Shown: positions 1-61,919 of the stretch, piece by piece
Layout of the letters: every line of letters begins with the position of its first letter
Numbering within the stretch: position 1 is the first letter of the stretch
IMG/VR virus record: IMGVR_UViG_3300034025_000033
Location: 1 to 61,919 of that record
From: a virus
DNA: 61,919 nt
Reading direction: 5' to 3' (one strand)
The notes under the pieces: generated by a model
What the model was told of the DNA's origin: nothing
Databases searched by the model: none
The model's input: only the letters and a program-made list of their open reading frames with translations
Program-made: the position numbers and the translations under genes

Positions 1-127
1 GGGCAGCCGGGCCGGAGTTGCGCCGGGTGGCGCATGGAGACAGACAAGCCCGACAAGAAAAAAGCCCGGCGAACCGGGCTTCTGTCTATATTTCCTACCG
101 GAACAGTAGGGATGATGCTTGTAGGAA
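1..127. repeat. Terminal direct repeat, copy 1 (identical to 61793..61919)
   Basis: The first 127 nt (gggcagccgggccggagttg...gatgatgcttgtaggaa) recur base-for-base as the last 127 nt of the window. Consistent with a circular-assembly overlap or a short terminal redundancy. Confidence 0.95.
58..80 (-). terminator. Intrinsic terminator in the late-operon leader (second copy at 61850..61872)
   Basis: Minus strand reads AGCCCGG-TTCG-CCGGGCT followed by TTTTTCTTG: a 7-bp GC-rich stem, a UUCG tetraloop and a U-run. It lies between the last early/middle gene (stop 137) and the first late gene (start 61760 across the circular junction). Confidence 0.8.
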
Positions 128-140
128 TTAATGCTGTCAA
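112..140 (-). promoter_or_regulatory. Putative late promoter (sigma70-like)
   Basis: Minus strand: TTGACA (140..135), a 17-nt spacer, then CATCAT (117..112). The -35 overlaps the stop codon of the 75-aa ORF. The terminator at 58..80 follows about 25 nt after the predicted start site. Confidence 0.5.
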
Positions 141-10312: not shown

Positions 10313-10342
10313 TAAATAAAAGGCCGTGTTGCAAAACGGCCT
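10313..10342 (-). terminator. Intrinsic terminator after the replication module
   Basis: Minus strand AGGCCGT-tttgcaac-ACGGCCT followed by TTTTATTT, 9 nt after the stop of the 217-aa gene. Confidence 0.8.
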
Positions 10343-10350
10343 CATCATAT

Positions 10351-11004
10351 TTACTGAACCAGCGGGCCGGCCAGCCGGGCAATCGGATCGCCCATATTCA
10401 CCCTGACAAGCCCGCCGGCGCCAGCGTTGCCGCGTTTGAATACCTGCTTCGCCTTTTCCTGGTCGCCCACCAGAATCATCGGCAGTAGCGGCAGGTTGTG
10501 CGCCTCGTTATGCGCGTTGCCGGTGCCGGTCAGCTTGGCCGGGTAGTCGGGAAGCTCGCCGCGCATGCGGAAACTGCGGTAGCGCGTCTGGAATTCCTTG
10601 CCGGCGAAGTGCAGGTCTTTCGGGTCGGGAATGCCGGCCACCTTTACCCAGCCGCCCATGTCGGCGATGACGCGGTGGATCAGCGGGTCATCGAAGATCA
10701 GGTCGTCCCATATGCCGCGCGTGCGCACCGCTGTCTCAACTTTCGACCATGCCACCGCCGCCTGGTCGACCGTGCTGCCCTCGATCATCTTGATGATGTC
10801 GGAATTGCGCGGCATCCAGCGCCCGGCCTCGTCAGGCAGTTGCGTGTGCGCCCAGCAGGCGCGCTCGATCGCCTCGTAGTCGTACTGCTTCAGCCCTTGC
10901 CAGTAGATGCCGGCCACGGCCTTGGAAATCTCCGACTTGTAATAGTCGGACAGGGCGGTGAGCAGCGCGGCGAAGCGGCGCCGTTCCTCGATGTTATCGT
11001 CCAC
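10351..11004 (-). CDS. Lambda-P-like replication protein / helicase-loader candidate (217 aa)
   Basis: The N-terminal pattern ...GIYWQGLKQYDYEAIERACWAHTQLPDEAGRWMPRNSDIIKMI resembles the lambda P / G39P-type motif (W..L...V..A......FxPsP..i) as I recall it. Its position fits a replication module. Confidence 0.5.
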   Translation of the reverse strand: MDDNIEERRRFAALLTALSDYYKSEISKAVAGIYWQGLKQYDYEAIERACWAHTQLPDEAGRWMPRNSDIIKMIEGSTVDQAAVAWSKVETAVRTRGIWDDLIFDDPLIHRVIADMGGWVKVAGIPDPKDLHFAGKEFQTRYRSFRMRGELPDYPAKLTGTGNAHNEAHNLPLLPMILVGDQEKAKQVFKRGNAGAGGLVRVNMGDPIARLAGPLVQ

Positions 11005-11317
11005 TTTCGTAATCCTCCAGCCAGTCCTGCAGGTTGTTGGCCGTCGCCTGGCCGTGCTTGCCCAGCGCCGGGAATGTGGAGCGGTGCGTTTTTGCCGGGT
11101 CTGCGCGCCGCTCCGCGATCGCGAACAGACCCTGCCACGAATTCATCACCGACTGATCGATGACAGCTTCAATATTCTGCCCCTCGGCGCGCAGTTTTTC
11201 CAGCACGCCGATCTGCAGCTTGATGGCGCGGTCGGTCATCGGCTTCTTGATCTTCTTGCGCATCTCGACGTAGCCGGCCCAGGCTTCGGCGGGGATCCAG
11301 TCAGGAATGGCGCTCAT
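10994..11317 (-). CDS. Replication-module protein of unknown function (107 aa)
   Basis: IPDWIPAEAWAGYVEMRKKIKKPMTDRAIKLQIGVLEKLRAEGQNIEAVIDQSVMNSWQGLF is a motif I associate with phage replication/initiator-associated proteins. ATGA coupling upstream. Confidence 0.55.
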   Translation of the reverse strand: MSAIPDWIPAEAWAGYVEMRKKIKKPMTDRAIKLQIGVLEKLRAEGQNIEAVIDQSVMNSWQGLFAIAERRADPAKTHRSTFPALGKHGQATANNLQDWLEDYESGR

Positions 11318-11520
11318 TGTGGCACCTCTTCACCCAGCGCGCGGGCAGTGGCTTCGTTCACGGCGCGGTTGATTGCGCCGATGATGGCCTGTGCGTGCTC
11401 GGGCCAGAAGGAGATGTACTGGATCGCCTCGCCTGGAACATTACAGTCCTGCTCGATGACGATTTCGCCCGAGTCGTTTGTGTGAATTTCGATCATTTCT
11501 TGTGCCCTCACCGCGATCAT
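11314..11520 (-). CDS. Hypothetical protein (68 aa)
   Basis: ATG at 11520 in ATGA overlap with the antirepressor stop. Acidic small protein. Confidence 0.55.
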   Translation of the reverse strand: MIAVRAQEMIEIHTNDSGEIVIEQDCNVPGEAIQYISFWPEHAQAIIGAINRAVNEATARALGEEVPQ

Positions 11521-12203
11521 ACTTGTCCCTTGATTTGATGTTTTGCCCACTCGCCCGCGATCCAGGTGATGCCCTTGGGGGTGAAGCGGGCAGAGTTGTA
11601 AGCATGGCCGCTGACTTCTGCCGTGCCGGCACGTACCTCAAAGCGCCCGGCGTCGAGCTGGTCGGCATACGGCACCCACTCGCCGCCCAGCTTGTACATG
11701 ATTTTGCGTTCTTCCAGGAAGGCGCGGAAATCTCCCTCTTTCGCCTTGAGCAGCTTGCAGACCTGACGGAATCCTTTCGATCCGGTCGAGTCCACGTAAC
11801 GGTCGACGAAGTCCAGCGCAGGCCTGGCCGCCTCCAGTTCAGCCGCCAGCCGGATACGCTCGCGTTCGGACTGCACGCCCATTTCCAGAAGTTGAAGAGT
11901 CGATAACTCTAGGTTATGGGACGTTTTTGCCTCCAACTCTTGCCAGCGGTCGACCAGGCGCGCAGTGAACTCGGGCGACAGTTGCGCGACGACGACATAG
12001 GAGTCTCGTTTGCACAAACGATACTCCCCTGCTGGACGCCCCAAAGTATCGAGGTATTCCCCCAATGGGGGATCACTGATGAGGCCGCTTTTTACCAAAC
12101 GCTCGATGCTTTGTTTGACCTTGTCGTGCCGCGATTCGACCAGATCGGCGATTTCTCGGCTGGTCATGGTTTTTTCTGTCTGATGTATTGCCATTTGATT
12201 CAT
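11517..12203 (-). CDS. Antirepressor: Rha N-terminal domain plus KilAC/ANT C-terminal domain (228 aa)
   Basis: MTSREIADLVESRHDKVKQSIERL is Rha-like. FRQVCKLLKAKEGDFRAFLEERKIMYKLGGEWVPYADQLDAGRFEV is KilAC-like. AGGAG sits 5 nt before the ATG at 12203. Confidence 0.85.
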   Translation of the reverse strand: MNQMAIHQTEKTMTSREIADLVESRHDKVKQSIERLVKSGLISDPPLGEYLDTLGRPAGEYRLCKRDSYVVVAQLSPEFTARLVDRWQELEAKTSHNLELSTLQLLEMGVQSERERIRLAAELEAARPALDFVDRYVDSTGSKGFRQVCKLLKAKEGDFRAFLEERKIMYKLGGEWVPYADQLDAGRFEVRAGTAEVSGHAYNSARFTPKGITWIAGEWAKHQIKGQV

Positions 12204-12476
12204 CACGACTCCTATCTGCCAATAAGTTAATGTTTCAGGTGAATCAAGCAAGTACGTATTCCTAAGGGGCTTGAGCGAGACTCAGACTTAGCCCGAGCCT
12301 TCACATAAACGTTCCTGTGGGGAATCGCTATGACCCGTCAGCCTTGCGCATGTGAGGTGCTAACTTCGACGCCTCATTGGGTGCTTCCCATGCTTTGCCC
12401 ACAGTACCCAGTTCCCCCGATGCCCCTGGTGCTTGCGTTCCCAGGCAGTCGGTAGTTGATGCGGCAGAAATGACAA

Positions 12477-12580
12477 AAGCCCTATAAGTCTCGGCGCTTT
12501 TCATCGTGGCAGCGATCTGGGATTCAACCCAAGAAAAACGCCGAAGCTTATAGGGCTTCGGTATCTGTCAATGCTGCCAC
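12477..12580 (-). promoter_or_regulatory. Structured RNA element with mutually exclusive folds (candidate attenuator or immunity RNA)
   Basis: Helix GTGGCAGC/GCTGCCAC (12580..12573 with 12513..12506) encloses a terminator hairpin. A 20-bp long-range helix (12558..12539 with 12496..12477) competes for the same nucleotides and ends in CUUUUG. Confidence 0.45.
12534..12561 (-). terminator. Intrinsic terminator inside the ORF-free region
   Basis: Minus strand CCGAAGC-CCTATAA-GCTTCGG followed by CGTTTTTCTT. Confidence 0.7.
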
Positions 12581-12621
12581 ATCAACGGGTGAATAGTAAA
12601 GAAGTTTCCAAAGTTGCGCCA

Positions 12622-12755
12622 TGTCTATTTCTGTCTATAACTATTCTGATTTATATCAAAAAGCTATAAATCAAAAGTTGGGACAAAAATCGGGCAGATT
12701 GTGGACAAATTTCGGACGACCGTTCAACGAGGAGTCAACGGTCGGTCAACGGTCG
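12622..12755. repeat. AT-rich tract with phased short repeats (iteron-like; origin or operator-array candidate)
   Basis: TGTCTAT x2 (12622, 12632). TCAAAA(A)G x2. GGACAAAAATCGG / GGACAAATTTCGG 22 bp apart (12681, 12703). Perfect tandem GTCAACGGTCG x2 (12734..12755) plus an inverted CGACCGTT (12717..12724). Confidence 0.6.
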
Positions 12756-12763
12756 TTGAAATG

Positions 12764-12785
12764 AAAAAGCCCCATCAAAGGGGCT
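12764..12785 (-). terminator. Intrinsic terminator after the Ref-like gene
   Basis: Minus strand AGCCCC-tttgat-GGGGCT followed by TTTTCATTTC, 35 nt after the stop at 12821. Confidence 0.75.
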
Positions 12786-12787
12786 TA

Positions 12788-12829
12788 GAAGGGTATCGAA
12801 AGGGTTAGCGAAGGGTTCCGCTACCCTTC
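12788..12829. repeat. GAAGGGT motif array
   Basis: GAAGGGT (12788), GAAAGGGT (12798), GAAGGGT (12810) and an inverted ACCCTTC (12823) at 10-13-bp spacing. The last pair forms a 7-bp palindrome across the Ref-like stop codon. Confidence 0.6.
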
Positions 12830-13303
12830 TGGCGGCGAGAAATCCAGCAGCGCATACAGCTCGGCCAGCATCTGCTGCTCGGTGCCGTACATCTGGCCGA
12901 ATATCTTCTTGGCGCCGTGCAGGCTGACGCGCTCCAGCGGGTCGGTGTCGTCCGGCTGGTGGTGCGGGCCGCACAGGGGCAGCACGAGGAAATGCGCGCC
13001 CGGCTTGGTCCTGCCGTCGACGTGGTGCAGGCTGATGTGGCGGTTCTCGCGCCCGTCCTTCGTGCACGCCATGCACGGCACCTGGCCGGCCCGGTCCATG
13101 AAGGCGCGTTCTGCCGCCGTCGGCGCGCGGCCCTTCAAGCCGCGGCTGCGCTTTTTTGGCGCGCGCTGCTTGACCTCGGCCACTGGTGCGGCTTTCGGCG
13201 TGGCCGCGCGCTTAATCGGCGTTCTGGCCAGCGTGGCGGTGCCGCGCGCCATGGGCGAGCGCTTCAAGCCATTGGTGCCGGGCTGGATCGGCGACCTTTT
13301 CAT
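12821..13303 (-). CDS. Ref-type (P1 recombination enhancement function / DUF968-like) HNH nuclease (160 aa)
   Basis: A basic N-terminus is followed by ERAFMDRAGQVPCMAC...HHVDG...PLCGPHH, the Cys/His arrangement I associate with RecA-dependent Ref nucleases. Confidence 0.7.
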   Translation of the reverse strand: MKRSPIQPGTNGLKRSPMARGTATLARTPIKRAATPKAAPVAEVKQRAPKKRSRGLKGRAPTAAERAFMDRAGQVPCMACTKDGRENRHISLHHVDGRTKPGAHFLVLPLCGPHHQPDDTDPLERVSLHGAKKIFGQMYGTEQQMLAELYALLDFSPPEG

Positions 13304-13337
13304 GTGCGGCGGCGCTGGTTGCGCCCGTAGCGGCGGC

Positions 13338-13799
13338 TCATGCTGCGCTCCCGGTTTCGTCAGGCACGGTGTCGCCGAATTTACTGGCCACGTAGGCGCG
13401 CATGGCGGCCACCAGCGGGGTAGCCGCGCTTTCTTGCCAGCTGTCTAGCGTCCTACCACTCCAACTAGCCACATTCCCCAATTCCGGCCGCCACGGCATC
13501 AACTGTATGCGCTCGCGCTCGATGATCGGCCCGCCCTGCGCCCAGTCGGTCGAGAAATTCGGCACGCCATCTCCGAAGAATCCGATCTGGATGTCGGCGA
13601 ACGTCAACGCTTCGGTGTAGCGCTCCTTCTGCGCCTCCCAGTCGCGCCTTCCTCTCCAGGGTTCACGCGCGCCAGGAGGCTGCTGCACGCACAGCGTATA
13701 GGACTCGCGCATGCCGCGCGTTTCTTTCCAGAATCGGTATCCCAGCGCCCGCGCCACCCAATAATTCAGCAACTCGCCGGTCAAGTCTTTCGTCTGCAT
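13338..13799 (-). CDS. DUF2591-like phage protein (153 aa)
   Basis: The N-terminus MQTKDLTGELLNYWVARALGY matches the DUF2591 opening motif. GGAG RBS. Confidence 0.7.
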   Translation of the reverse strand: MQTKDLTGELLNYWVARALGYRFWKETRGMRESYTLCVQQPPGAREPWRGRRDWEAQKERYTEALTFADIQIGFFGDGVPNFSTDWAQGGPIIERERIQLMPWRPELGNVASWSGRTLDSWQESAATPLVAAMRAYVASKFGDTVPDETGSAA

Positions 13800-13854
13800 T
13801 GTCTTTCTCCTTATTGTCTATATGGGGCGCCGCCCTGGTTGAGCGGCGCCTAGA

Positions 13855-14226
13855 TTACGGTCGCATTCTGATTGCGCGGGCACGGCCGTGGCCCAGTGTG
13901 ATGTAGCCCTTGCGCTCCAGCGCCAGCAGATGGTCCTGTGCGGCGTTGGCCGATCTGAAACCGAGTCCGTCCGCGATTTCGCGGTGAGTCGGTGCCATGG
14001 CGTTGTCGCGGATGTACCGGAACAGGAAAGCGAAGACTTCCCGCTGCCGGTCCGTCAGCGCCGGGCGTTTGTCGCACGCCTGTGCTGGCGCCGGATCAGC
14101 AGCAGTATCGGCGATGAAATCGAGAATGGCGGCCTTCCTCTGTTCCCGCTCATCACCTTCGGGCGCCATGGAAAAGCGCCGTACCAGAAGCCAGAACTCG
14201 GGTCGATCAAGTTTCTGCTTTATCAT
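13855..14226 (-). CDS. LexA N-terminal DNA-binding-domain-only protein (123 aa)
   Basis: ALTDRQREVFAFLFRYIRDNAMAPTHREIADGLGFRSANAAQDHLLALERKGYITLGHGRARAIRM parallels E. coli LexA residues ~3-68. The ORF stops at the linker, with no cleavage site and no S24 peptidase domain. It has a 55-aa novel N-terminal extension. Confidence 0.8.
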   Translation of the reverse strand: MIKQKLDRPEFWLLVRRFSMAPEGDEREQRKAAILDFIADTAADPAPAQACDKRPALTDRQREVFAFLFRYIRDNAMAPTHREIADGLGFRSANAAQDHLLALERKGYITLGHGRARAIRMRP

Positions 14227-14969
14227 GCTGCCTCCAGCAGGTTCAGTTGTGCAGGCAGGTTGCCTGCATTGGGATTTCCCCACTGTGCCGCCATGGCATC
14301 GGCGATGCCATGAAAGGTGCGGCTGCGATCTCGCCAGCGCTCCGGGCCGGGCGATGCCAGATGCACGGCCGACCATTTCTTGTGCTCTGGCGTGCCCGGC
14401 TTTGGCGGTGTCAGGCGGTTCGTCGCCACCAGCGGCGGCAGGCGGTCCAGCTCAAATCCGGTTGCCTTGAACGCCTCTTCACCGAACCACCACGGCTGCA
14501 CGATCTGGCGCGGACCCGGCTGAATCAGTTCGCGTGCATGGCAGTGCATGATCGGGTTTTCGATCGCCTTGCCCTTCTTTGCCCTGACCTTTTTGAACAG
14601 CTTGTAGAACTCGGCGCCTTGGCGCAGCTCGTCCCACATGAACGCCAGCCGCTGGTCGCGCGACATGCTGGCATATGCAGCCACCACCGCGGCCGGGTAT
14701 TGCCACGGTGCCAGCTTTTTCGGCGGCTCGATCAGCCAGCGCGCGCCGGCATTGGTCAGACGGGTGCAGGTCGGGTGGGCGATGATGATGTCCCAGTAGT
14801 CATCGATCAGCACATCGCGCACGTCGCCTTTGTAGTGCGGCCCCGGTCTTTCAGTATCGAGCAGGTCGCACGACATGGCCCGGCATCCAGCCCTGATAAA
14901 AGCGTCGCGCCCGATGCCGGACGATTCGCAGGCGATCAGGACGTTCAGGGGCATCTTGTTGTTGTCCAT
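14223..14969 (-). CDS. DNA C5-cytosine methyltransferase-like protein (248 aa)
   Basis: LIACESSGIGRDAF (motif I-like), AHPTCTRL (PCQ-like catalytic Cys) and IENP (ENV-like). It is short, with no obvious target-recognition domain. Confidence 0.6.
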   Translation of the reverse strand: MDNNKMPLNVLIACESSGIGRDAFIRAGCRAMSCDLLDTERPGPHYKGDVRDVLIDDYWDIIIAHPTCTRLTNAGARWLIEPPKKLAPWQYPAAVVAAYASMSRDQRLAFMWDELRQGAEFYKLFKKVRAKKGKAIENPIMHCHARELIQPGPRQIVQPWWFGEEAFKATGFELDRLPPLVATNRLTPPKPGTPEHKKWSAVHLASPGPERWRDRSRTFHGIADAMAAQWGNPNAGNLPAQLNLLEAA

Positions 14970-14995
14970 GTTTTACTCCTTGAGTAGTGGTGCCA

Positions 14996-15655
14996 TCACA
15001 GGCCCAGCGCTGCGAAGATGTCCTGCGGCCTCGTGACCGTCGGCGCGTGCTTTACTGGCGGCTTGCGCAGCGATTCCCAGCGCGGCGCGGCGCCGACCTT
15101 GCCACTGATCGCGATGTCCGCATCTGCGCGCAGCATCGTCAGTGCGTACTTGACGGCCCGTTCGTTCGCGCCGAGCGCCCCGACGATCATTGCCGTCGTG
15201 TAGCCTGGATGCTCGGCCACGAAGTCACTGACCTGTTGCGGCAGTGGCGGGTCATAGTGGCGGCGGTCGCGCTTGATGTCGGTTTTCGCCGGGCGGATGC
15301 GCGTTACCTTGGCCTTTGCGCGGTGCTCCAGAATGCCGGCATAGCGCGCCGGGTCGCTGCGCACTTCATCCCATTTTTCCTTATTCGTCTTGCGCCGGCG
15401 CGGCGCGTCGTCGCTGTCGCCGAGCGCATAAACCGGCGTGCGGACCTGCCCGACCAGAGGCCAGTCGGCGATGAACACCGAGCGCGGCGCCTGGCGCATG
15501 TGGGCCAGGTAGCGAACTACCATCGACGGATCGAGGCAAATCCTGGCGCCGAGCTGGTCCGAGGATAACCACTCCCCACCGGCCAGCGCCCGCTGAATGC
15601 GCCGCATCTGGATCTTGGCGCGCTTGCTGGTGAACTTGTAGTCCGCGCGCGCCAT
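14996..15655 (-). CDS. Hypothetical early protein (219 aa)
   Basis: ATG at 15655 in ATGA overlap with the Cro-like gene. Two winged-helix-like stretches. The 298-aa track ORF merges it with an out-of-frame shadow of the Cro-like gene. Confidence 0.65.
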   Translation of the reverse strand: MARADYKFTSKRAKIQMRRIQRALAGGEWLSSDQLGARICLDPSMVVRYLAHMRQAPRSVFIADWPLVGQVRTPVYALGDSDDAPRRRKTNKEKWDEVRSDPARYAGILEHRAKAKVTRIRPAKTDIKRDRRHYDPPLPQQVSDFVAEHPGYTTAMIVGALGANERAVKYALTMLRADADIAISGKVGAAPRWESLRKPPVKHAPTVTRPQDIFAALGL

Positions 15656-15864
15656 CAGGCACCGTCCTTCGCCAGCTTCTTGTCGACCTTCTTGAAATGC
15701 GCGGTCAATTTCTCGACCGTGCCCAAGCTCGGCTTCGCGCCGGTCATGACGGCGTAGATGGTGCGGTAGCTGATGCCACTGTCGCTGGCGATGCGCGTCA
15801 GACGCCCGCGCTGCTCCTTCGCTTCGTTCAGCCGCTTGATAATCTTCTGCAGTTCGTCGTCCAT
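15655..15864 (-). CDS. Cro-like HTH regulator (69 aa), first gene of the leftward early operon
   Basis: GGAG sits 6 nt before the ATG. HTH segment LTRIASDSGISYRTIYAVMTG. It lies immediately downstream of the early promoter. Confidence 0.8.
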   Translation of the reverse strand: MDDELQKIIKRLNEAKEQRGRLTRIASDSGISYRTIYAVMTGAKPSLGTVEKLTAHFKKVDKKLAKDGA

Positions 15865-15890
15865 GTGGGTCTCCGTGTGAAAGTGACTCC

Positions 15891-15919
15891 ATACTAGAGC
15901 GTCATCGCTCCGTCGTCAA
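15891..15919 (-). promoter_or_regulatory. Leftward early promoter
   Basis: Minus strand TTGACG (15919..15914), a 17-nt spacer, TAGTAT (15896..15891), then about 20 nt to the GGAG of the Cro-like gene. Confidence 0.6.
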
Positions 15920-15920
15920 C

Positions 15921-15950
15921 ATGCAACTTGCAAGAAAAAGACTTGCAAAC
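15921..15950. promoter_or_regulatory. Operator-like TTGCAA repeats in the divergent control region
   Basis: ACTTGCAA at 15926..15933 and 15941..15948 (15-bp spacing) plus ATGCAA at 15921. TTGCAA is self-complementary. The repeats abut the -35 of the leftward promoter. Confidence 0.45.
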
Positions 15951-16006
15951 AACAGCCGATATGTGGCACGATGGATTCCGTAGTCAAACAAACAGGGAGC
16001 ACGACA

Positions 16007-16600
16007 ATGGATGTGAAGGACGATGCGGCGCCGAACTTGGAGTTGGAAGAGGTATGGAAAGCGATTCCCGGTCTTGAGCAGTTTTATGAAGCAAGTACGC
16101 ATGGGCGGATTCGCAGCCTTTCTCGCACTGTTCGTCAAAAGACGGGTAAGCAATATTTGCAAGCTGGCCGGGTAATGAAGCCAGCGCTGGGAATCAAGAA
16201 CAAATATTTTTCGCTTCGCCTTACCAATCAGGTAGAAACCGTAACGCGCTATGTCCACCATCTGGTGCTCATTACTTTCGTCGGGCCGGCGCCAGAAGGG
16301 ATGGAAGGTTGCCATGGCGACGGCGATAGGGCTAACAACCGGATTTCTAACCTGCGCTGGGACACTCGATCAAACAACCATGCCGATAAGGCATTGCATG
16401 GGACTGACCACAAGGGCGAACGGCATCCTGGGTCGAAATTGACTGAATCGGATGTTAAGAATCTACGAAAGCGCCGGCTAGACGGCTTGTCGTATGCCGC
16501 GCTAGCAAAAGAATTTGGCGTGACAACGATGACCGTATACAGAGCGGTTAAAGGTAAAAACTGGAGCCACGTCCCACAGGAAAATAAGGAGGCAACATGA
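16007..16600 (+). CDS. HNH homing endonuclease (NUMOD4 + HNH_3 type, 197 aa)
   Basis: EEVWKAIPGLEQFYEASTHGRIRS (NUMOD4-like), VHHLVL...CHGDGDRANNRISNLRWDT (HNH) and a C-terminal HTH. AGGGAG precedes the ATG at 16007. Lower GC than the flanks. Confidence 0.85.
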   Translation: MDVKDDAAPNLELEEVWKAIPGLEQFYEASTHGRIRSLSRTVRQKTGKQYLQAGRVMKPALGIKNKYFSLRLTNQVETVTRYVHHLVLITFVGPAPEGMEGCHGDGDRANNRISNLRWDTRSNNHADKALHGTDHKGERHPGSKLTESDVKNLRKRRLDGLSYAALAKEFGVTTMTVYRAVKGKNWSHVPQENKEAT

Positions 16601-17529
16601 AACAGCAAGAAACCCCGATCGCAGTCATCGGCAAGATTGTCTACGGTGTCGAGCGCGAGTTCAACGAAGTGCTGGTCGACCAGAGCATCAACTTCCGCCG
16701 TGAAGCCGAGTTCGCCATGCAGATCATCGAGGGCAACAGCTACATGCTGACGACCGCGATGAAGAATCAGCAGTCCGTCGTCAACGCCGTGAAGAACATC
16801 GCGGCCATCGGCATCAGCTTGAACCCGGCGAAGAAGCAGGCGTATCTCGTGCCACGCCGACCGAAGGCAGGCGCCGACACGGCCATCTGCTTGGACATCA
16901 GCTACATGGGTCTGATCGACCTGGCTGTCGAATCCGGTTCGATCCGCTGGGCGCAGGCCAAGCTGGTGCGCGAGAACGACGAATACGAAAGCCAGGGTAT
17001 CGACAAGCCGCCCGTGCACAAGTACAAGGCATTCGCCAGCGCGCTCGATCGCGGCCAGATCATCGGCGTGTATGTGGTCGTGAAGACGGTCGACGGTGAC
17101 TTCCTGACGCATGAAATGGGGCTTGAGGAAGTGCATGCGATCCGCGACCGCTCCGAGTCGTGGAAGGCTTACGTCAAGGACGAAACCAAGAAATGCCCAT
17201 GGGTGACGGACGCCGGCGAAATGATTAAGAAGACCGTCATCAAGCAGGCGGCGAAAACCTGGCCGCGCGGCTCGGGTCGGCTGGAGCAGGCGATCCACCA
17301 CCTGAACACCGACGGCGGCGAGGGATTGGTCGACATCAACGAGCCTCCAGTGCATAGCGATCCCGAACCGACAAAACTGCTGGTTGAGGCGCGTGTTGCG
17401 GCGGATGCTGGCCGTGAGCAATTTGGCGTGTTCTGGAAAGGTCTGAACGGAGCCAAGCGCACGCAACTCGGGCCTCACCTCGGCGACTTGCAGGCGCGCG
17501 CCGACAAAATCGACGGAGTGCCCAAGTAA
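16597..17529 (+). CDS. recT: RecT-family single-strand annealing recombinase (310 aa)
   Basis: [20 protein letters not shown]... and the overall RecT pattern. AAGGAGG RBS. ATGA overlap with the HNH stop. Confidence 0.9.
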
Positions 17530-21440: not shown

Positions 21441-24400
21441 TTAATCGCCAGCAGTAGCAAACCTGCCGAGGTCGCGCACATCGGCGTGCTTCTTCGGCAG
21501 GTAGACGCCGTCTTCAGCTTCGCGAATGCGCTTGTTGCGGTTGCGCAGGCTCTGCACCAGGGACGGCATCGTGATGCGGCGGCCCGGGTTCTTCGCGTTG
21601 AACTTCTGCACTGCCTCCCACACTTCGGCCGCGCCTTCCTCGTCGTCCGCCATACGCGCATGCGCCCACTGTTCGACCAGCGCCTGGCGCCTGTCGGTCA
21701 GCACGCGCTCGGCGCGGTACACCGCCGACTTGCCTTCCATCGCCTCACGCGAGCGCGAGGGAGAAAAACCGATCAGCTGCCCGATTTCCTCGATCGCGCT
21801 GGTGTCGTCCAGGATCGGAATGCCAGTCTTGTCCTTGACGCCTTCGCCGTTCAGGCGCAGCGCCTTGATCGGGTTGCGCACCGACACCGGCATCATGTCT
21901 TCCAGCCCGCGCAGGTAGTTGCCCTGTGCGATGTTGGCCGCGCCCTTGGCCGCCGACAGGCCGATACCGGCCACCGGCCCCAGCGCCGCCGTCATCCACG
22001 ACTCGGCCGCGCGCGCCCCTTCCAGCCCTTCCTGCACGTCCGGTAGGATCAGCTTGTCCAGGCCCACGCGGCCCGAAATATCGAACGGCGTCAGGCGCGA
22101 GAAGCCGTGCATCATCACCTCGGCCGGCTTTTGCCCGATCAGGTCCGCGATGTAATTGCGCAGCGCGATCTTCGCATCCCACGGTTCATCATCATCGCCG
22201 CCGATCAGCGTGGCCGCCGACAGCAGCGTGCCCACCACCGGCAGGCCCAGCACGCCGGCCGCCATCGCGTGCGACAGCAGCAGGCCCGACAGGGTGCGCA
22301 GCGCCACCTTGTCGCCCTTGGCCGCCAGCACCGCGTTACGTACAAGCGTGTATGTCATATTCTGGGCATATTGCTTAAATAACAACACAACCCGAGCAAC
22401 TGGACCTTGCATGACACGCGCTCGATTTCCACTGGAGTAATCAAAGTGGGATGCATAGACCTCGTCAACGGCCGATTTATAAGCCGCGTCGTGCGCCATG
22501 CCGGCGCCGCGCGCGAGGCGGTAGGCGGCGAGCAGGGATGCCTGGCGGTTGAATTTCTCGCCGTGGTGGAACATGAACGACGCCCACTTCATCACCGGGC
22601 GCAGCTTGCCGTGCGCCTTGGTGTCGTCGCCCGAGGCGATACCGGCCAGGTCGTGCGCCATCGATACGTCGATCACGCCGGCGTCGACCGCCTGCTGGTA
22701 GGCGCGCAGCTCGTCGCCTTGCAATACCTTGCTGATGTCGTTCTTGGCGCCGGCGGTCTGCTTTGCAGCAGTCAAGAGCGCGGCGGACGCTTTTGCGAAC
22801 CCGTGCTTGGCGGCCAGCATCGGCAGGGTGACGAGCGGCGTCTGCGTCAGGTTGACGACCGCCGACGCCGGCGACAGGCCCAGGTAAAACAGGAAGCCGA
22901 CCGATGTGAGCGCGTTCGACAGACTGTTCCCCTGCGGACTCATATAGGCGTCGTGGCGCTTGTTCATTTCGTCGACCACCTGCTGCGCGCGCACGGAATC
23001 GTAATCAGCGTTCGCTGCCTGCGAATCGACATGGTCCTGCATTTCGTCGAGGAAGTCGGCCAGGCGGTCGCCGTAGCGCAGTTTCGCCAGATACCGGGCA
23101 CCGTGGAACAGATTCTGCGCGAACGCGCGGCGCGCGTCCTGGCTGAAGCCGGGCGTGCCCTTGCGGTGGATGCCGTGCTTGGTCCAGGACAGGTCCGGCA
23201 TCGACTGCAGGTACAGCTGGTTGATGTCGTCCTGCAGTTCCTCGGCGCCGTCGTACTGGTCGAGCACGCCGAACAGTTCCTGCATGAAGCCGCGCGAGAC
23301 CGCGTCGCGGCCGGCGTTGAATTCCTTCTTCTTCGTGATTTTCGACACCACATGCCCGTCGGCGGCCGGGAATTTCTTCACCAGTTCGCGGCGCAGGGCT
23401 TCTGCCTCGTTGGTCGTCTCGGCAAAGTTCACGGACAGGCGCGTGCCGTCGCGGTCAGTCACGGAGACGACGTAGTCGCCGAAGCGCGCCAGCGGGAAGT
23501 AGACGCCTTTGACTTTTTCGTAGAACGTGGCGTCCATCTTTTCCAGCAGCTTGGCGCGGCGCGCGTTGTCGGGCATGGCGCGCTCGATGCGGCTCCGGAT
23601 CTCGGCCCGGACCTTCATCCAGTGCTTGTGGTAGGCGTCGCGCGCCTCGGCGTAGATCGCGCGCGCGTCCGGCGACAGCACCGCCAGCCGGGCCTGCAAT
23701 GCCTTGTGCGCGGCGCGGTCGTCGCCGGCCACGTAATCCTTGGCCGGGTCGATCTGCGCCAGGGTCGAATCGTGCATCAGGTCGGCCAGCTTGTCGGCGT
23801 CGGCCAGCTTGCCCCAGCGGTCGGCGATGCCGTCGGCCTCGGCGCCGGCTTCGTTTTTATCCGCGTCCATCTGCTGCATCAGGTCGCTGTAGCGCGCGAG
23901 CGTCGATCCCTTGACGCCGTCGAACTGGTCTGCGTACAGGTCAACGAGCTGGCGCCTGCCCAGGAACTGCAGGCCCACGTTGCGGAAATCCTTGAGGCGG
24001 TTCGCCGCCATCTTCGGCAGGTCGGTCAGCGTGGCCGCGCTCAAGCCGTTGCCGATCGCGTCCGCCAGGCGGCTCGGCATCGATGCGCGCAAGCCGCTCT
24101 CTCCGATCGGCCCGGTGGCGCGGTTCTCGGCGAACAGGTCCGGCGTGATCGCCATGACGCGCGCCAGCACGTTCTCGCGCGCGGCCGGCATGCCCAGCAG
24201 CATGCGCACGATGCCGACCAGCTTCTGCCAGACCGATAGCTTGGTTCCCGGCGCCGGCGTGTCGGCCAACTGCTGGCGAAAACTCGGGCTGGTCAATGCT
24301 TCGGTGATGAATTCTTCCGGATCGGTGATGCCGTAGTAGCCCTCAAAACTCGGCATGGCGGCCACGTACTTGTGCAGTTCCTTGATCTGGCGCGCCGCCA

Positions 24401-25787
24401 GACCGCCGCGGCCGAGTGCGCGCAGCGTGGCCGCGTGGGTCAGTTCATGCAGCGCCGTCTGCACCGCGCCGACTTCCTTGCCGACGAACGCAGTGTCGTC
24501 GGACTGGCGATAGGCGCCGTTCGCCTGCTCGGCGCTGCCGCTGACGTATTGACCGCTCGGCGTGCCGAATTCGATCGTCGTTTTCAGGTTCTGGCGGCGC
24601 AGGGCCGCGGCCAGGTCGCGCTGCGCGGCGTCGCTCGATTCGGACTCGATCAGCGCCAGCAACTTGTCGACCGTCGTGCCGTCACGGATGACCTGCGCCA
24701 CCTGGCCGTCGATGTCGCTGGCGATGCTGTCGCCTGCGGCGCGCGTGTCCTCGCCCGGTTCGACGATCGGGCGCCCCTTCTCGTCGACCGGGCCGGTGTA
24801 GCTCTTCCAGAATTCGACCTGCGCCATGAAGTCCGGCGCCACCAGTTCGCCCAGGCTGTTCCTGATCGGGCGGCGCACGCCGTCGACCTCGATCGTGCGG
24901 GTGTCGGTCAGGCTGGCGCGCAGCGAATCCTCGTCGATCTTGGCGTTGGCGTCGCGCTCCATCTGCTGGAATTCCTTCCAGCGCGATTCTGCCTTGATGA
25001 GATCCAGGCGCAGGCTGCCCGCGCCCAGCGGATCGGCCTTGATCTGCTCGCGCAGTTTCTTGACCTGCTTGTAGGCGGCAGCCTTGTTTTCCTTGGCCGT
25101 AGCGAGCATGCCCTGCGCCGTGCTTTCCACGTCCTTGCGCGCGATTTTCTTGTCTCGCGCTTGTAGGGCTGGTGCTTTGGGTTTTTCTTCAGCAGCAGGT
25201 GCGGGCGCATTCGGGTCTTCAATGGCCGTGATTTTCTTGTTGTAGGTGAACAGGCGGTAATTTCCGGACTGCTCAACAAAAACAGGGAATTCGCCAACGA
25301 CAGCAGGCTTGTTCACGTCACGGCTGCGAATTGTCTTTGCACTGCCGACCAGCTTTGCGTCGCTCGACTTGAATTGCTTGCCGTCGGCGGTCGTCACGAT
25401 CTGCTCTGCCTTCTTCGGCGCGGCTGGCGGCGCTGGCTGTTCAGCTGGCGCTTCTTCATTTGGTGCTGGCGCAGTATCTGCCGGCGCTGGCTTCGGCTCG
25501 GCGGGTTGTTCCGCCGCCACTGGTGCTGCAACTGGTGCTGGTGCCGGTGCCAATTCTGGCACTTTTTTCGCCCCGCCCTGCGCTTCCCATTGCCCGCGCA
25601 CGGTCTTGACGATGCCCGCCCTTTCCATCTGCGCCATCTGCAGCTGTTCTTCGACGGCGCGCTGCATGGCCGCGCCTGGGGACATGCCTTGCTGCTCCTG
25701 GTACTGTTTGGCGGTGGCGCGCAGCGCATCGGCGGGCACGGCGTCGCGCAGGTTCAGCGACACGAGGCAGGAATCGAATTTAGACAT
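21441..25787 (-). CDS. Giant PLxRFG-domain virion/ejection protein with HExxH motif (1448 aa)
   Basis: PLARFG is at 23478..23495 and HELTH at 24435..24449 (both hand-verified). Start taken at ATG 25787 (MSKFDSCLVSL), which aligns with the 172-aa paralogue's N-terminus. It is the last gene of the late operon. Confidence 0.85.
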   Translation of the reverse strand: MSKFDSCLVSLNLRDAVPADALRATAKQYQEQQGMSPGAAMQRAVEEQLQMAQMERAGIVKTVRGQWEAQGGAKKVPELAPAPAPVAAPVAAEQPAEPKPAPADTAPAPNEEAPAEQPAPPAAPKKAEQIVTTADGKQFKSSDAKLVGSAKTIRSRDVNKPAVVGEFPVFVEQSGNYRLFTYNKKITAIEDPNAPAPAAEEKPKAPALQARDKKIARKDVESTAQGMLATAKENKAAAYKQVKKLREQIKADPLGAGSLRLDLIKAESRWKEFQQMERDANAKIDEDSLRASLTDTRTIEVDGVRRPIRNSLGELVAPDFMAQVEFWKSYTGPVDEKGRPIVEPGEDTRAAGDSIASDIDGQVAQVIRDGTTVDKLLALIESESSDAAQRDLAAALRRQNLKTTIEFGTPSGQYVSGSAEQANGAYRQSDDTAFVGKEVGAVQTALHELTHAATLRALGRGGLAARQIKELHKYVAAMPSFEGYYGITDPEEFITEALTSPSFRQQLADTPAPGTKLSVWQKLVGIVRMLLGMPAARENVLARVMAITPDLFAENRATGPIGESGLRASMPSRLADAIGNGLSAATLTDLPKMAANRLKDFRNVGLQFLGRRQLVDLYADQFDGVKGSTLARYSDLMQQMDADKNEAGAEADGIADRWGKLADADKLADLMHDSTLAQIDPAKDYVAGDDRAAHKALQARLAVLSPDARAIYAEARDAYHKHWMKVRAEIRSRIERAMPDNARRAKLLEKMDATFYEKVKGVYFPLARFGDYVVSVTDRDGTRLSVNFAETTNEAEALRRELVKKFPAADGHVVSKITKKKEFNAGRDAVSRGFMQELFGVLDQYDGAEELQDDINQLYLQSMPDLSWTKHGIHRKGTPGFSQDARRAFAQNLFHGARYLAKLRYGDRLADFLDEMQDHVDSQAANADYDSVRAQQVVDEMNKRHDAYMSPQGNSLSNALTSVGFLFYLGLSPASAVVNLTQTPLVTLPMLAAKHGFAKASAALLTAAKQTAGAKNDISKVLQGDELRAYQQAVDAGVIDVSMAHDLAGIASGDDTKAHGKLRPVMKWASFMFHHGEKFNRQASLLAAYRLARGAGMAHDAAYKSAVDEVYASHFDYSSGNRARVMQGPVARVVLLFKQYAQNMTYTLVRNAVLAAKGDKVALRTLSGLLLSHAMAAGVLGLPVVGTLLSAATLIGGDDDEPWDAKIALRNYIADLIGQKPAEVMMHGFSRLTPFDISGRVGLDKLILPDVQEGLEGARAAESWMTAALGPVAGIGLSAAKGAANIAQGNYLRGLEDMMPVSVRNPIKALRLNGEGVKDKTGIPILDDTSAIEEIGQLIGFSPSRSREAMEGKSAVYRAERVLTDRRQALVEQWAHARMADDEEGAAEVWEAVQKFNAKNPGRRITMPSLVQSLRNRNKRIREAEDGVYLPKKHADVRDLGRFATAGD

Positions 25788-26130
25788 GCAGGGCAAGCTC
25801 CATCAGGAATGCGAGGGTGATTTCTTCGTCGTCGAGGTCGAGCGCGGCGCGCGCGTCTTGCTCGTAAGCACGACTATGATAAGGGCTTGCCTCCGCTTGC
25901 GGCGAAATTTTGGCAACCGTCGCCACTCTTGCCGCACTGGTGCGGCGCACGCGGCCGCCGCTGACGATCGCTTCGGCCTCGTCGTCGTGGTTGTCGTTCG
26001 GATTGGCGCGCACGTCCATCTCGGCCCAGCCGACGCACGGGCGCGACGGCCGGGTATCGAACTCGGCCCAGCCGATCTTCGGCGTCGGCGCCAGCGCATC
26101 GAATACGGCAAAGCCGATGCGGGCGGCCAT
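25780..26130 (-). CDS. Small acidic protein with (I/V)GWxE(F/M)D repeats (116 aa)
   Basis: IGWAEFDT and VGWAEMDV, plus the tail DDEEITLAFLMELALHV. Paralogue of 33406..33705. Its stop overlaps the next gene's ATG (CATGTCTAA). Confidence 0.7.
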   Translation of the reverse strand: MAARIGFAVFDALAPTPKIGWAEFDTRPSRPCVGWAEMDVRANPNDNHDDEAEAIVSGGRVRRTSAARVATVAKISPQAEASPYHSRAYEQDARAALDLDDEEITLAFLMELALHV

Positions 26131-59542: not shown

Positions 59543-60091
59543 TTATTCGATGGGCGCCGTGCAAGCGATGCGCAGGCGCTCGTAGCGGTCGACTACTTCG
59601 CCGTGCTTGCGGATTGCTTCGTCGCCGCGGTGGAGGAGGTCGACCAGGAAGATTCCAGCGTCCGCACTAAGTTCGGCGTATCCTTCGCCGCCAGTTCCTG
59701 CGGCAACGGATCCACTTCCATCCGCGGAAGGCGCTGCAGGGCGGCGGATTGGGACGCGCAGCCGGCGATTATCGCTGCGCAGGTCAGCAATAAGCTGGTC
59801 GTCATGTTCTTTTGCATGGGTCGATTCCTCCTTGAATCTGGCGAATTCGGTGCGGTCTTCCGTGCGCAGGTCGCGCTCGCGCTGCAGCACCTTGGCAGCG
59901 GCGTCGGCTTGGTCTTTCAGTTGCTCGATGGTGTTGGCCTGCTGCTTGAAGCGTTCGCGCTCGGCGCCCACGTCGACGCAATAGATGGCCGTCAGCGCAG
60001 TCCAGACGCAGATGACGATCCAGAACGTGGGGTTGAGCAGAATGCCGAGCGGCGAAGTGCGGGCGCTCGTGGCGATGGTTTTGACGATCAT
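59543..60091 (-). CDS. rz: i-spanin (Rz-like, 182 aa)
   Basis: N-terminal TM (FWIVICVWTALTAIY), a coiled coil, and a position after the endolysin (ATGA overlap). Confidence 0.8.
   Translation of the reverse strand: MIVKTIATSARTSPLGILLNPTFWIVICVWTALTAIYCVDVGAERERFKQQANTIEQLKDQADAAAKVLQRERDLRTEDRTEFARFKEESTHAKEHDDQLIADLRSDNRRLRVPIRRPAAPSADGSGSVAAGTGGEGYAELSADAGIFLVDLLHRGDEAIRKHGEVVDRYERLRIACTAPIE
59593..59817 (-). CDS. rz1: o-spanin (Rz1-like lipoprotein) embedded in rz in the +1 frame (74 aa)
   Basis: Lipobox LLLTCAAIIAG|C. The short mature part contains Pro residues. It lies fully inside the rz ORF. Confidence 0.75.
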   Translation of the reverse strand: MQKNMTTSLLLTCAAIIAGCASQSAALQRLPRMEVDPLPQELAAKDTPNLVRTLESSWSTSSTAATKQSASTAK

Positions 60092-60573
60092 GCGGCACCT
60101 GTCAGGCAGAGGGTTTGTTCATTGGCGCGGCGCGTGGTCAAGCCCGGCAGCGGGATCATCACGCCGGCCACGCGGCTCTTGTTCCATCTTGGCAATTGGT
60201 TGCAGGCCAGCTTCAGGTTGCCCGTTGCCAGGTAGCGCGCGGCCGTCGAGGCGTCGCGGTTGCAGGCGATCGTCGGTCCCATGTTGAAGACGGCGTCGGC
60301 AAAGGCGGCCAGCACCGGCTCGGGCAGGCCCGGGTTGCAGCGCTCGACGGTGTCGATGGCCTTGAGCATGTCGGCGTTGAGCAGCGCCTTGCATTCCTCG
60401 ATGCTGTAGGTCTTGCCCTTCTGAACGTGCGCGCCGGTCGATCCAAAACACACGGTTAAAATTCCTGCTGGACAGAAATATGCTTTCTGCCTCAGCCCTT
60501 CCGCTGGCGCTGCGATGGCAACAGCAATTGCGAGCGCAGCCGCTTTGCGGGTTGGTTTTTTTACTTGCTCCAT
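60088..60573 (-). CDS. SAR endolysin, GH24 (T4/P21-type lysozyme, 161 aa)
   Basis: The weakly hydrophobic N-terminus KAAALAIAVAIAAPA is followed by EGLRQKAYFCPAGILTVCFGST (E-x8-C-x5-T triad spacing). Start taken at ATG 60573. Confidence 0.85.
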   Translation of the reverse strand: MEQVKKPTRKAAALAIAVAIAAPAEGLRQKAYFCPAGILTVCFGSTGAHVQKGKTYSIEECKALLNADMLKAIDTVERCNPGLPEPVLAAFADAVFNMGPTIACNRDASTAARYLATGNLKLACNQLPRWNKSRVAGVMIPLPGLTTRRANEQTLCLTGAA

Positions 60574-60623
60574 TATCTTTGCCCATCCATAATAATGACT
60601 CCAATACCACCGCAAGGGCATTT

Positions 60624-61175
60624 ATGGAACAGTTTCGAGAAATGACGTTCAAAGGCGTGGACTTGCTTGTTGGCTCGATGGGAACCATTAAGCTTCCAGG
60701 GCGTCAATCCACATACACCCGCACTCGGGATGGCAAAGCTCAAACCTTTGAGTACACCAGAAAGGAATCCGCCATTTCTCCATCGAAGACGAAAGGCGGC
60801 TATTTGGAAATCGACATACGCAACAGCGGGAAGCGCACGCGACAAGCCGTTCACAGGCTGGTGGCGCTGGCTTGGTGCGATGGGTATGCAGATGAACTTT
60901 GCGTAAACCACATAAACGGCATAAAGCACGACAACCGTGCCGAGAATTTGGAATGGGTCAGCCTTGCCCGCAACACTCAGCATGCATGGGAGACTGGCTT
61001 GGTTGATTTGCGAGGCGAGAAACAGCCGAACGCCAAGCTGACAAGCAAGCGCGTGGTGTACATCCGCAAACTTCTTGCTCAAGGCGTCACTCCACATGCG
61101 CTTGCCATCGTGGCCGATGTTTCCGAATCGCTGATCTACCTGATCCGCGATGGCAAGCGCTGGGATTCGGTTTAG
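60624..61175 (+). CDS. HNH homing endonuclease (HNH_3 type, 183 aa) on the opposite strand inside the lysis cassette
   Basis: VHRLVALAWC...CVNHINGIKHDNRAENLEWVS (HNH) plus a C-terminal HTH. AAGGG sits 5 nt before the ATG. Lower GC than the flanks. Confidence 0.85.
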   Translation: MEQFREMTFKGVDLLVGSMGTIKLPGRQSTYTRTRDGKAQTFEYTRKESAISPSKTKGGYLEIDIRNSGKRTRQAVHRLVALAWCDGYADELCVNHINGIKHDNRAENLEWVSLARNTQHAWETGLVDLRGEKQPNAKLTSKRVVYIRKLLAQGVTPHALAIVADVSESLIYLIRDGKRWDSV

Positions 61176-61760: not shown

Positions 61761-61792
61761 GGCAGCGCCTAAAAAGAACCCGACCACCTTGT

Positions 61793-61919
61793 GGGCAGCC
61801 GGGCCGGAGTTGCGCCGGGTGGCGCATGGAGACAGACAAGCCCGACAAGAAAAAAGCCCGGCGAACCGGGCTTCTGTCTATATTTCCTACCGGAACAGTA
61901 GGGATGATGCTTGTAGGAA
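61793..61919. repeat. Terminal direct repeat, copy 2 (identical to 1..127)
   Basis: See copy 1. Confidence 0.95.

Follow-up and report, generated by a model that had tools for sequence, protein, structure and literature searches.

A phage-encoded LexA-type DNA-binding domain lacking self-cleavage elements, upstream of a Ref-family nuclease gene

A minus-strand gene (13855..14226) of the phage record IMGVR_UViG_3300034025_000033 from IMG/VR, analyzed here over its whole length of 61,919 nucleotides (the window), encodes a 123-aa protein that, as judged from its sequence, is a LexA-type DNA-binding domain devoid of any element for self-cleavage stimulated by activated RecA. Our tentatively preferred explanation is that this protein is a RecA-insensitive LexA derivative, which would occupy host LexA-type operators and repress them during infection. 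The open reading frame (ORF), assigned from its translation and its PF01726 match, begins with an ATG sharing bases with the stop codon of the 248-aa gene before it (ATGA), and a Shine-Dalgarno sequence, GGAGG, could be read 4 nt 5' of this ATG (14231..14235, minus strand). The identical 123-aa protein was found in three independent assemblies (JGI, Logan, and ENA), and gene calls on a second, independent assembly returned the same product.

Residues 56-118 of the protein matched positions 3-65 of the 65-position PF01726 model (LexA_DNA_bind; E 3.3e-23), and residues 56-121 aligned with residues 3-68 of Escherichia coli LexA in a phmmer search against the PDB (E 2e-14), which places the C-terminal end at LexA position ~70, where the DNA-binding domain meets the hinge. 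The winged-helix domain delimited by this alignment and by structure matching spans residues 56-123 and, with the stop codon, positions 13855..14061 of the minus strand. In the AlphaFold model, this LexA-type domain has a predicted local distance difference test score (pLDDT) of ~98, and its best PDB match by Foldseek was the LexA-DNA complex 3JSO (root-mean-square deviation 0.6 Å over 68 columns, 51% identity). The domain is 52-58% identical to genuine Gamma- and Betaproteobacterial LexA domains and retains all family-invariant residues. No Ala-Gly dipeptide occurs anywhere in the 123-aa protein, the Pfam search gave no match to the S24 domain PF00717, and the score for the NCBIfam lexA equivalog TIGR00498 (71.3 bits) fell below the cut-off of 110.95, the match being confined to model positions 3-69 of 203. 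These results bear out the initial annotation, which had described a nearly complete LexA winged helix ending at the hinge, without a cleavage site or an S24 domain. Matches to PHROG 362, 24920, and 3502 (E 3e-17, 1.9e-19, and 8.3e-17) covered the domain only (residues 54-121), and the PADLOC defense-system library yielded only a marginal winged-helix match.

The recognition helix, SANAAQDHLLALE (residues 92-104; 13915..13953, minus strand), was located by alignment to the contact residues of E. coli LexA. The bases are contacted in that protein by S39, N41, A42, E44, and E45 (PMC3091678), which correspond to S92, N94, A95, Q97, and D98 of the phage protein; three of the five are thus identical, and the two replacements, E44Q and E45D, are conservative. 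Burkholderiales LexAs carry the helix SANAAEDHLRALE, reading SANAAEDHL where the phage protein has SANAAQDHL, and the longer stretch SANAAEDHLRALE[RK]KGYI, present in Burkholderiaceae, Castellaniella, and other Betaproteobacteria, differs at two positions from the phage SANAAQDHLLALERKGYI. The sole contact-residue difference from these Betaproteobacterial LexAs is E44Q. A genome-collection scan for prophage relatives found no domain-only gene at any of its 80 loci; 77 of them were host full-length lexA genes, and the helices of these 77 S24-containing LexAs were mostly of the variants NAAEE (36), NAAED (22), and NAASD (13), a mixture indicating that positions 44 and 45 vary naturally among genuine LexAs. 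Asp at position 45, as in the phage protein, is common in genuine LexAs, and NAAQD and NAAQE are also present in rare full-length S24-containing LexAs. Independent enteric phage captures of the domain keep a helix that equals, or nearly equals, that of the host (SPNAAEEH and SPNAAEDH, compared with SPNAAEEH in E. coli).

Our operator search covered all intergenic regions and was directed at CTGT-N8-ACAG, at palindromes in general, and at symmetric variants of the box that differ by one base and have spacers of 7-9 bp. A perfect CTGT-N8-ACAG, a box taken from class-level knowledge, is absent from the whole window, which extends what had initially been reported for the phage regulatory regions. 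One-mismatch sites numbered 15 in the window against 14.1 expected by chance, with none in regulatory regions. The few variant boxes (e.g., CCGT-N8-ACGG at 10324) were rejected as operators, lying in terminator-like hairpins, in coding-dense stretches, or off promoters, and none of the intergenic palindromes of the window was LexA-box-like in half-site or spacing or recurred in the genome. Nothing in the phage genome therefore looks like a functional LexA-type operator, and for a phage without its own LexA-type box, host SOS boxes are plausible targets. Non-cleavable LexA is established by genetics to block SOS induction. LexA domains also touch each other on the operator, so cooperative binding would be possible without a C-terminal dimerizer. 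In the mechanism we propose, the protein would occupy LexA-type operators, either host SOS boxes or close variants, whether through cooperative contacts between DNA-bound domains or as a dimer formed through its N-terminal helices. The promoters concerned would stay repressed because the protein cannot be cleaved, even when activated RecA arises from phage replication, from RecT/exonuclease recombination, and from nicking by Ref; the activated RecA would remain available, and SOS transcription would be damped.

The N-terminal extension (residues 1-55; 14062..14226, minus strand) consists of two predicted helices and an Ala/Pro/Asp-rich linker. Helices 9-19 and 25-42 were modeled by AlphaFold at pLDDT 75-81 and the linker at pLDDT ~60; about 13 residues, predicted to be flexible, separate the two-helix element from the winged helix. 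The extension had no Pfam and no PHROG match, and in an exhaustive HMMER search of 1.8 billion representative sequences, few matches reached into residues 15-55. Apart from one distant relative (P0113), which alone aligned into the extension, from residue 17, the extension is essentially an orphan, in keeping with its initial description as novel. We considered whether it might be a truncated version of the winged helix with which proteins of the nearest subfamily (P0025, P0152, and relatives) begin; a MAFFT alignment with this subfamily had looked suggestive, and the idea was rejected at an hhalign probability of 0.05.

With an E limit of 0.001, the exhaustive HMMER search returned 7,375 proteins, of which only the query itself scored below 1e-30. 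The best 150 matches, classified by length and domain criteria with S24 judged from a simple G.SM motif, comprised 46 proteins with tandem double LexA domains, 38 with the domain plus a C-terminal tail, 20 bare domains, 14 with an N-terminal extension plus the domain, 9 full-length proteins with S24, and 24 others. The large population of tandem double-domain proteins (P0003, P0006, P0016, P0021, and others), a by-product of this survey, carries two LexA DNA-binding domains in one polypeptide without S24; these proteins look like covalent pseudo-dimers of the LexA head, and no description of them was found in the literature searched. The closest domains (P0025, P0152, P0162, P0167, P0170) share HLLALE[KR]KGY and end in ARAIR..P. 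Models of the first 75 residues of these proteins show another winged helix, and the model of P0152 is similar to tandem winged helices of the ScpB or SelB type. Among cultured phages, LexA-domain-only genes are carried by SfV (orf42), SfII, SfIV, mEp460 (gp46), Edwardsiella phage EPP-1, and many of the Stx phages. In most cases, their annotation reads "LexA DNA binding domain protein" or "transcriptional repressor" (PHROG 362). No functional study of these lambdoid genes was found in the literature searched, where gp6 of the tectivirus GIL01 was the only characterized phage protein of this kind. Together with gp6, these annotated genes show that the class is already known, and the window protein represents an uncharacterized branch of it; what is new is the two-helix N-terminal extension on a known, widely annotated kind of phage protein.

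Two genes downstream of the LexA-domain gene lies the gene for a 160-aa HNH nuclease of the Ref family (RecA_dep_nuc; 12821..13303, minus strand), assigned by PF16786 (E 1.7e-18) and PHROG 2321 (E 1.4e-26). Its product is 37% identical to P1 Ref over residues 24-155 (tblastn, E 1e-18), has the invariant C77, C80, H93, C111, H115, and H129 of the alignment, and starts with a basic stretch of ~60 aa; the gene matches Burkholderia Bcep22-like phages over its full length. By these sequence features, it is a genuine P1 Ref homolog, as had been proposed. Part of the published work on P1 Ref describes DNA cleavage that depends on RecA filaments (PMC4713147, PMC3973344), and by extrapolation the homolog in the window may cleave in the same manner. 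Part of the same work also describes Ref as toxic and reports that the SOS response is triggered when its N-terminal DNA-binding domain is expressed (PMC4713147).

Four locus sets built from IMG/VR were used to survey the co-occurrence of the two genes. Among loci centered on the LexA domain, 54 of 80 had a Ref/DUF968-type gene within 4 kb, nearly all of them from two enteric lineages. In one of these, the SfV/mEp460 type, the LexA-domain gene is followed by DUF968 at a distance of 1.2-2 kb; in the other, the 71-aa EPP-1 type, DUF968 is directly adjacent. Twelve other lineages in this set had no such gene within 4 kb, and an ORF at one locus (L006) that appeared Ref-like in an iterated search had no Pfam support and was not counted as a pair. 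A control set around homologs of the window's methyltransferase contained a Ref-like gene at 2 of 80 loci and a LexA domain at none. The Ref-centered set (83 loci) included 17 marine loci in which a 75-79-aa PF01726-only gene precedes a same-strand PF16786 gene of 98 aa by about 185 bp (range 151-210 bp), the pair lying between the small and large terminase genes (L297-L313, e.g., L305 3465-4297). Downstream of the LexA-domain gene, these loci have a perfect TTGACA-17-TATAAT promoter, GGTA-rich repeats, and then the RecA_dep_nuc gene; the recognition helix (VKSVGWVHSLV) is quite different. DUF968 forms a His-Me group separate from Ref (PMC5714182); the PF16786 and DUF968 profiles nevertheless cross-match. 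The domain gene thus precedes a PF16786/DUF968 nuclease gene on the same strand in four lineages (the window, the marine one, and two enteric ones), a fixed order that is a further by-product of the survey.

The linkage to Ref-type nucleases is therefore recurrent and constant in order, but it is sporadic, and could stem from shared accessory DNA-metabolism blocks or from function. The SOS-decoupling idea put forward in the initial annotation is a reasonable hypothesis. Recurrence of the pair in four lineages speaks for a module, and its absence from the nearest relatives of the gene, of Ref, and of the phage speaks against one. A broader version, in which a LexA-domain protein and a Ref-type (PF16786/DUF968) nuclease form a recurrent phage counter-SOS device uncoupling RecA activation from transcription, we consider unlikely. 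Under it, the nuclease would exploit or provoke RecA filaments, and the uncleavable mimic would keep the host SOS regulon shut, resident prophages, bacteriocins, and SOS-linked defenses included.

Several observations weigh against host-operator repression by the phage protein or against its functional pairing with Ref. When Ref proteins were clustered at 70% identity, only 1 of 15 clusters, that of the 17 marine loci, had a LexA-domain neighbor, and a Ref-like gene was found in none of the 8 loci of the family with the same N-extension-plus-domain architecture (P0153, P0154, P0159, P0160, P0162, P0173). The nearest Ref relatives (77% and 45-66% identity) had no LexA-domain gene nearby, and a related 58.8-kb phage contig carried the methyltransferase (72%) and Ref (58%) genes without a LexA-domain gene. 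Neither was a LexA-like annotation present within 4.5 kb of the Ref-like gene of BcepMigl, and P1 is not known to carry a LexA-domain gene beside ref. At the recognition helix, Q44 is common in short proteins without S24 (NAAQD 11, NAAQE 6) and was found in ~3 of 98 full-length LexAs, although both samples are query-biased; a glutamine at this base-contacting position fits a shifted specificity. The SOS box presumed for the host comes from class-level knowledge only. Many relatives have tandem winged helices that may read asymmetric sites, so a target in the phage could have escaped the palindrome searches. For the N-terminal extension, the putative dimerization element, Pfam, PHROG, and hhalign revealed no homolog of known function. 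Finally, GIL01 gp6, the only studied phage case, uses a non-LexA palindrome and activates transcription (PMC6182141).

This precedent also supports a second explanation, which we regard as a real though doubtful possibility: the protein may be a phage-directed transcription factor whose captured LexA domain has drifted toward an operator of its own, perhaps asymmetric or of different spacing, and that represses or activates phage genes, for example by timing the toxic Ref nuclease, the antirepressor unit, or other early genes. The annotation of PHROG 362 relatives as transcriptional repressors, the E44Q replacement at a base-contacting position, and the enrichment of Q44 in short homologs are consistent with such a role, as is the regulator-like placement of the same-architecture relatives, each isolated behind an intergenic gap and followed by a long series of early genes on its strand. 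Local control is likewise suggested by the promoter and GGTA-rich repeats that precede the Ref-family gene in the marine lineage. Candidate phage sites do exist at 13827-13849 (an inverted repeat), 12718-12760 (the CGTTGA repeats), and 15928-15948 (a palindrome), but all are unlike the LexA box in half-site or spacing, and none recurs in the genome. The first of these, detected by a palindrome scan, is a perfect 7-bp repeat, GCGCCGC-N9-GCGGCGC (13827..13849), 6 nt past the LexA-domain stop codon and without a following T-run. A gp6-like late activator was judged unlikely: no palindrome was found near the late genes, and their control looks antitermination-like, so that such an activator would not be needed. 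The recognition helix, moreover, is nearer to that of host LexA than retargeting would predict.

A quite unlikely third explanation assigns the protein to DNA transactions, as an origin/iteron or packaging-site binder or as a partner of the methyltransferase or the HNH nuclease. A weak match of the LexA-domain protein to PHROG 270, "replication initiation protein" (E 9e-4), and the lack of a recognizable replication initiator among the window ORFs scanned point in this direction, together with an iteron-like triple repeat and AT-rich stretch just downstream of the operon (12560-12760) and the location of the marine pair between terminase genes, beside repeated motifs. The PHROG 270 match is, however, marginal, and the CGTTGA repeat is unrelated to LexA half-sites. 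For a methyltransferase partnership, one may cite the three unrelated methyltransferase families found upstream in enteric phages, with a fourth type in the window; against it, none of the 80 loci of window-methyltransferase homologs had a LexA-domain gene and the adjacency is absent in other lineages, and we rejected the partnership as a positional effect. The enteric phages themselves (L025, L032, L040, L001) show Dam (PF05869), D12-class (PF02086), and C5 (PF00145) methyltransferase genes alternating directly upstream of, and overlapping, the SfV-orf42-type gene; at this slot of the nin region, methyltransferases are swapped. That the window gene is an expendable relic in decay, derived from a captured lexA or tandem winged-helix gene and of no important function in this phage, as its sporadic distribution, its absence from the closest related phage contigs, and its orphan N-terminal region might suggest, is highly improbable given the intact ORF with a strong ribosome-binding site and translational coupling, the domain pLDDT of ~98 with family-invariant residues retained, and the identity of the protein in three independent assemblies.

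The LexA-domain gene belongs to a predicted rightward operon whose gene order is Cro-like helix-turn-helix (HTH), 219-aa gene, methyltransferase-like gene, LexA-domain gene, NinX, and Ref; the methyltransferase, NinX, and Ref genes make its setting a nin-like block of accessory genes for DNA metabolism. The promoter, genes, and terminator of the operon lie on the minus strand. A promoter scan placed the early rightward promoter, TTGACG-17-TAGTAT, at 15891..15919, the only promoter-like site in 11000-17000. The first gene of the operon encodes the Cro-like HTH protein (69 aa; 15655-15864). The DNA-methyltransferase-like gene (248 aa; 14223..14969) matched PHROG 757, "DNA methyltransferase" (E 1.8e-46), and had no Pfam match, and the NinX-family gene (153 aa; 13338..13799) was recognized by PF10765 (E 1.4e-20). 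A terminator scan identified an intrinsic terminator after ref at 12767..12786, with a 7-bp stem of 5 GC pairs and a T-run. Upstream of the operon, a 142-bp divergent control region (15865-16006) faces, on its plus-strand side, the leftward recombination operon (HNH, RecT, YqaJ exonuclease). Within this region, just 5' of the -35 element of the rightward promoter, lies the perfect 21-bp palindrome TTGCAAG-N7-CTTGCAA (15928-15948), probably the operator of the Cro-like protein. Between the Ref terminator and the antirepressor gene, the segment 12540-12766 contains three CGTTGA(C/A) repeats (12718-12760), ~150 bp of AT-rich sequence with a 7-N9-7 palindrome (12649-12671), and a second intrinsic terminator (12561-12541); this arrangement is reminiscent of a replication origin or of a unit for a small RNA. 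The antirepressor gene, of the Rha/KilAC type, is located at 11517-12203.

The window is probably a complete phage genome. The terminator hairpin AGAAGCCCGGTTCGCCGGGCTTTT occurs at both of its ends (60-83 and 61852-61875; repeat unit ~61.8 kb), which indicates that the contig is circular or terminally redundant. Its GC content is ~63%, its organization is lambdoid, and portal, terminase, lysozyme, and Rz genes could be identified. The closest cultured relatives by portal were Ralstonia GP4-like phages (~42% identity); this relationship and the Bcep22-like Ref make a Betaproteobacterial host likely. No integrase, S24-type CI repressor, replication initiator, helicase, or primase was recognized among the window ORFs scanned. 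A late promoter-like site, TTGACA-17-CATCAT (112-140, minus strand), and two strong terminators (60-83, equivalent to 61852-61875, and 61777-61805) form a layout like that of lambda PR' and precede a 120-aa ORF, the lysozyme (60088-60621) and Rz (59543-60091) genes, and the terminase genes; the succession of a promoter and two terminators before the lysis genes implies Q-type antitermination. Two minus-strand ORFs without a family match (538-1059 and 156-527) are alternative candidates for the antiterminator. On the plus strand, there are two HNH_3/NUMOD4-type homing-endonuclease-like genes (16007-16600 and 60480-61175). The second is oriented against the late genes around it, and its GC content at third codon positions is low (0.59), features suggestive of a recent insertion. 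A 1451-aa protein (21441-25796, minus strand; PHROG 30335, E 8e-284; PHROG 10089, E 6e-135) resembles the C-terminal parts of very large DarB-like antirestriction/virion proteins.

If the protein does hold host SOS promoters repressed, it would represent a simple phage means of blocking SOS without touching RecA, by swapping the cleavable repressor for an uncleavable head. Such an activity would bear on how resident prophages, bacteriocins, and SOS-linked defenses are left dormant by lytic phages, on how phages tolerate their own Ref-type nucleases, and on genetic or protein SOS inhibitors for limiting antibiotic-induced mutagenesis. If the protein proves to be an ordinary phage-specific regulator, it would be a routine new family member. 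LexA-domain-only genes number in the thousands and gp6 is the only one characterized in the literature searched, so a tested proteobacterial example would annotate a large family.

Among the closest known systems are the enteric phage genes SfV orf42, mEp460 gp46, those of the Stx phages, and the 71-aa "lexA_2" of EPP-1. They are likewise domain-only, belong to the nin-like early region of lambdoid phages, and are located on the same strand upstream of a His-Me finger nuclease, often with a methyltransferase directly upstream; they differ from the window gene in showing ~46-52% identity over the domain only, in having a C-terminal tail or no extension, and in that their nuclease is DUF968. The tandem winged-helix proteins and two-domain relatives (P0003, P0006, P0152, and others) share a LexA-type domain without S24 and are the closest sequence neighbors of the window domain, but they possess a second complete winged helix where the window protein has two helices with no detectable homology to it.

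Relative to LexA itself, the free N-terminal fragment offers a useful parallel: it binds SOS boxes and represses, and its removal by ClpXP is needed for SOS activation (PMC10584840). The window protein has the same fold and a near-identical recognition helix, but differs in lacking S24, the hinge, and the Ala-Gly site, in adding the N-terminal two-helix element, and in the replacement of E44 by Q. The cleaved LexA fragment is marked for ClpXP by a Val-Ala-Ala end, and the C-terminus of the window protein does not have this end. GIL01 gp6, a truncated LexA homolog of a Bacillus thuringiensis tectivirus that is 44% identical to the Gram-positive host LexA, binds GaCACAnnTGTGaC, a palindrome distinct from the LexA box that shares bases with the -35 element, and thereby switches on the late promoter P3 (PMC6182141). 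Both proteins are phage-encoded, early, and essentially LexA winged helices without the cleavage/dimerization domain, and hence RecA-insensitive. They differ in that gp6 has no N-terminal extension, whereas the window protein has one of 55 aa with a recognition helix near that of proteobacterial LexA, no gp6-like site was seen in the window, and late control there looks antitermination-like. A second GIL01 protein, gp7, stabilizes LexA on DNA and inhibits RecA-mediated cleavage (PMC4551915). It exemplifies a phage strategy that holds LexA-controlled promoters repressed despite DNA damage, the outcome we tentatively propose here; gp7, however, acts through host LexA and is not a DNA-binding homolog, whereas the window protein would take the place of LexA.

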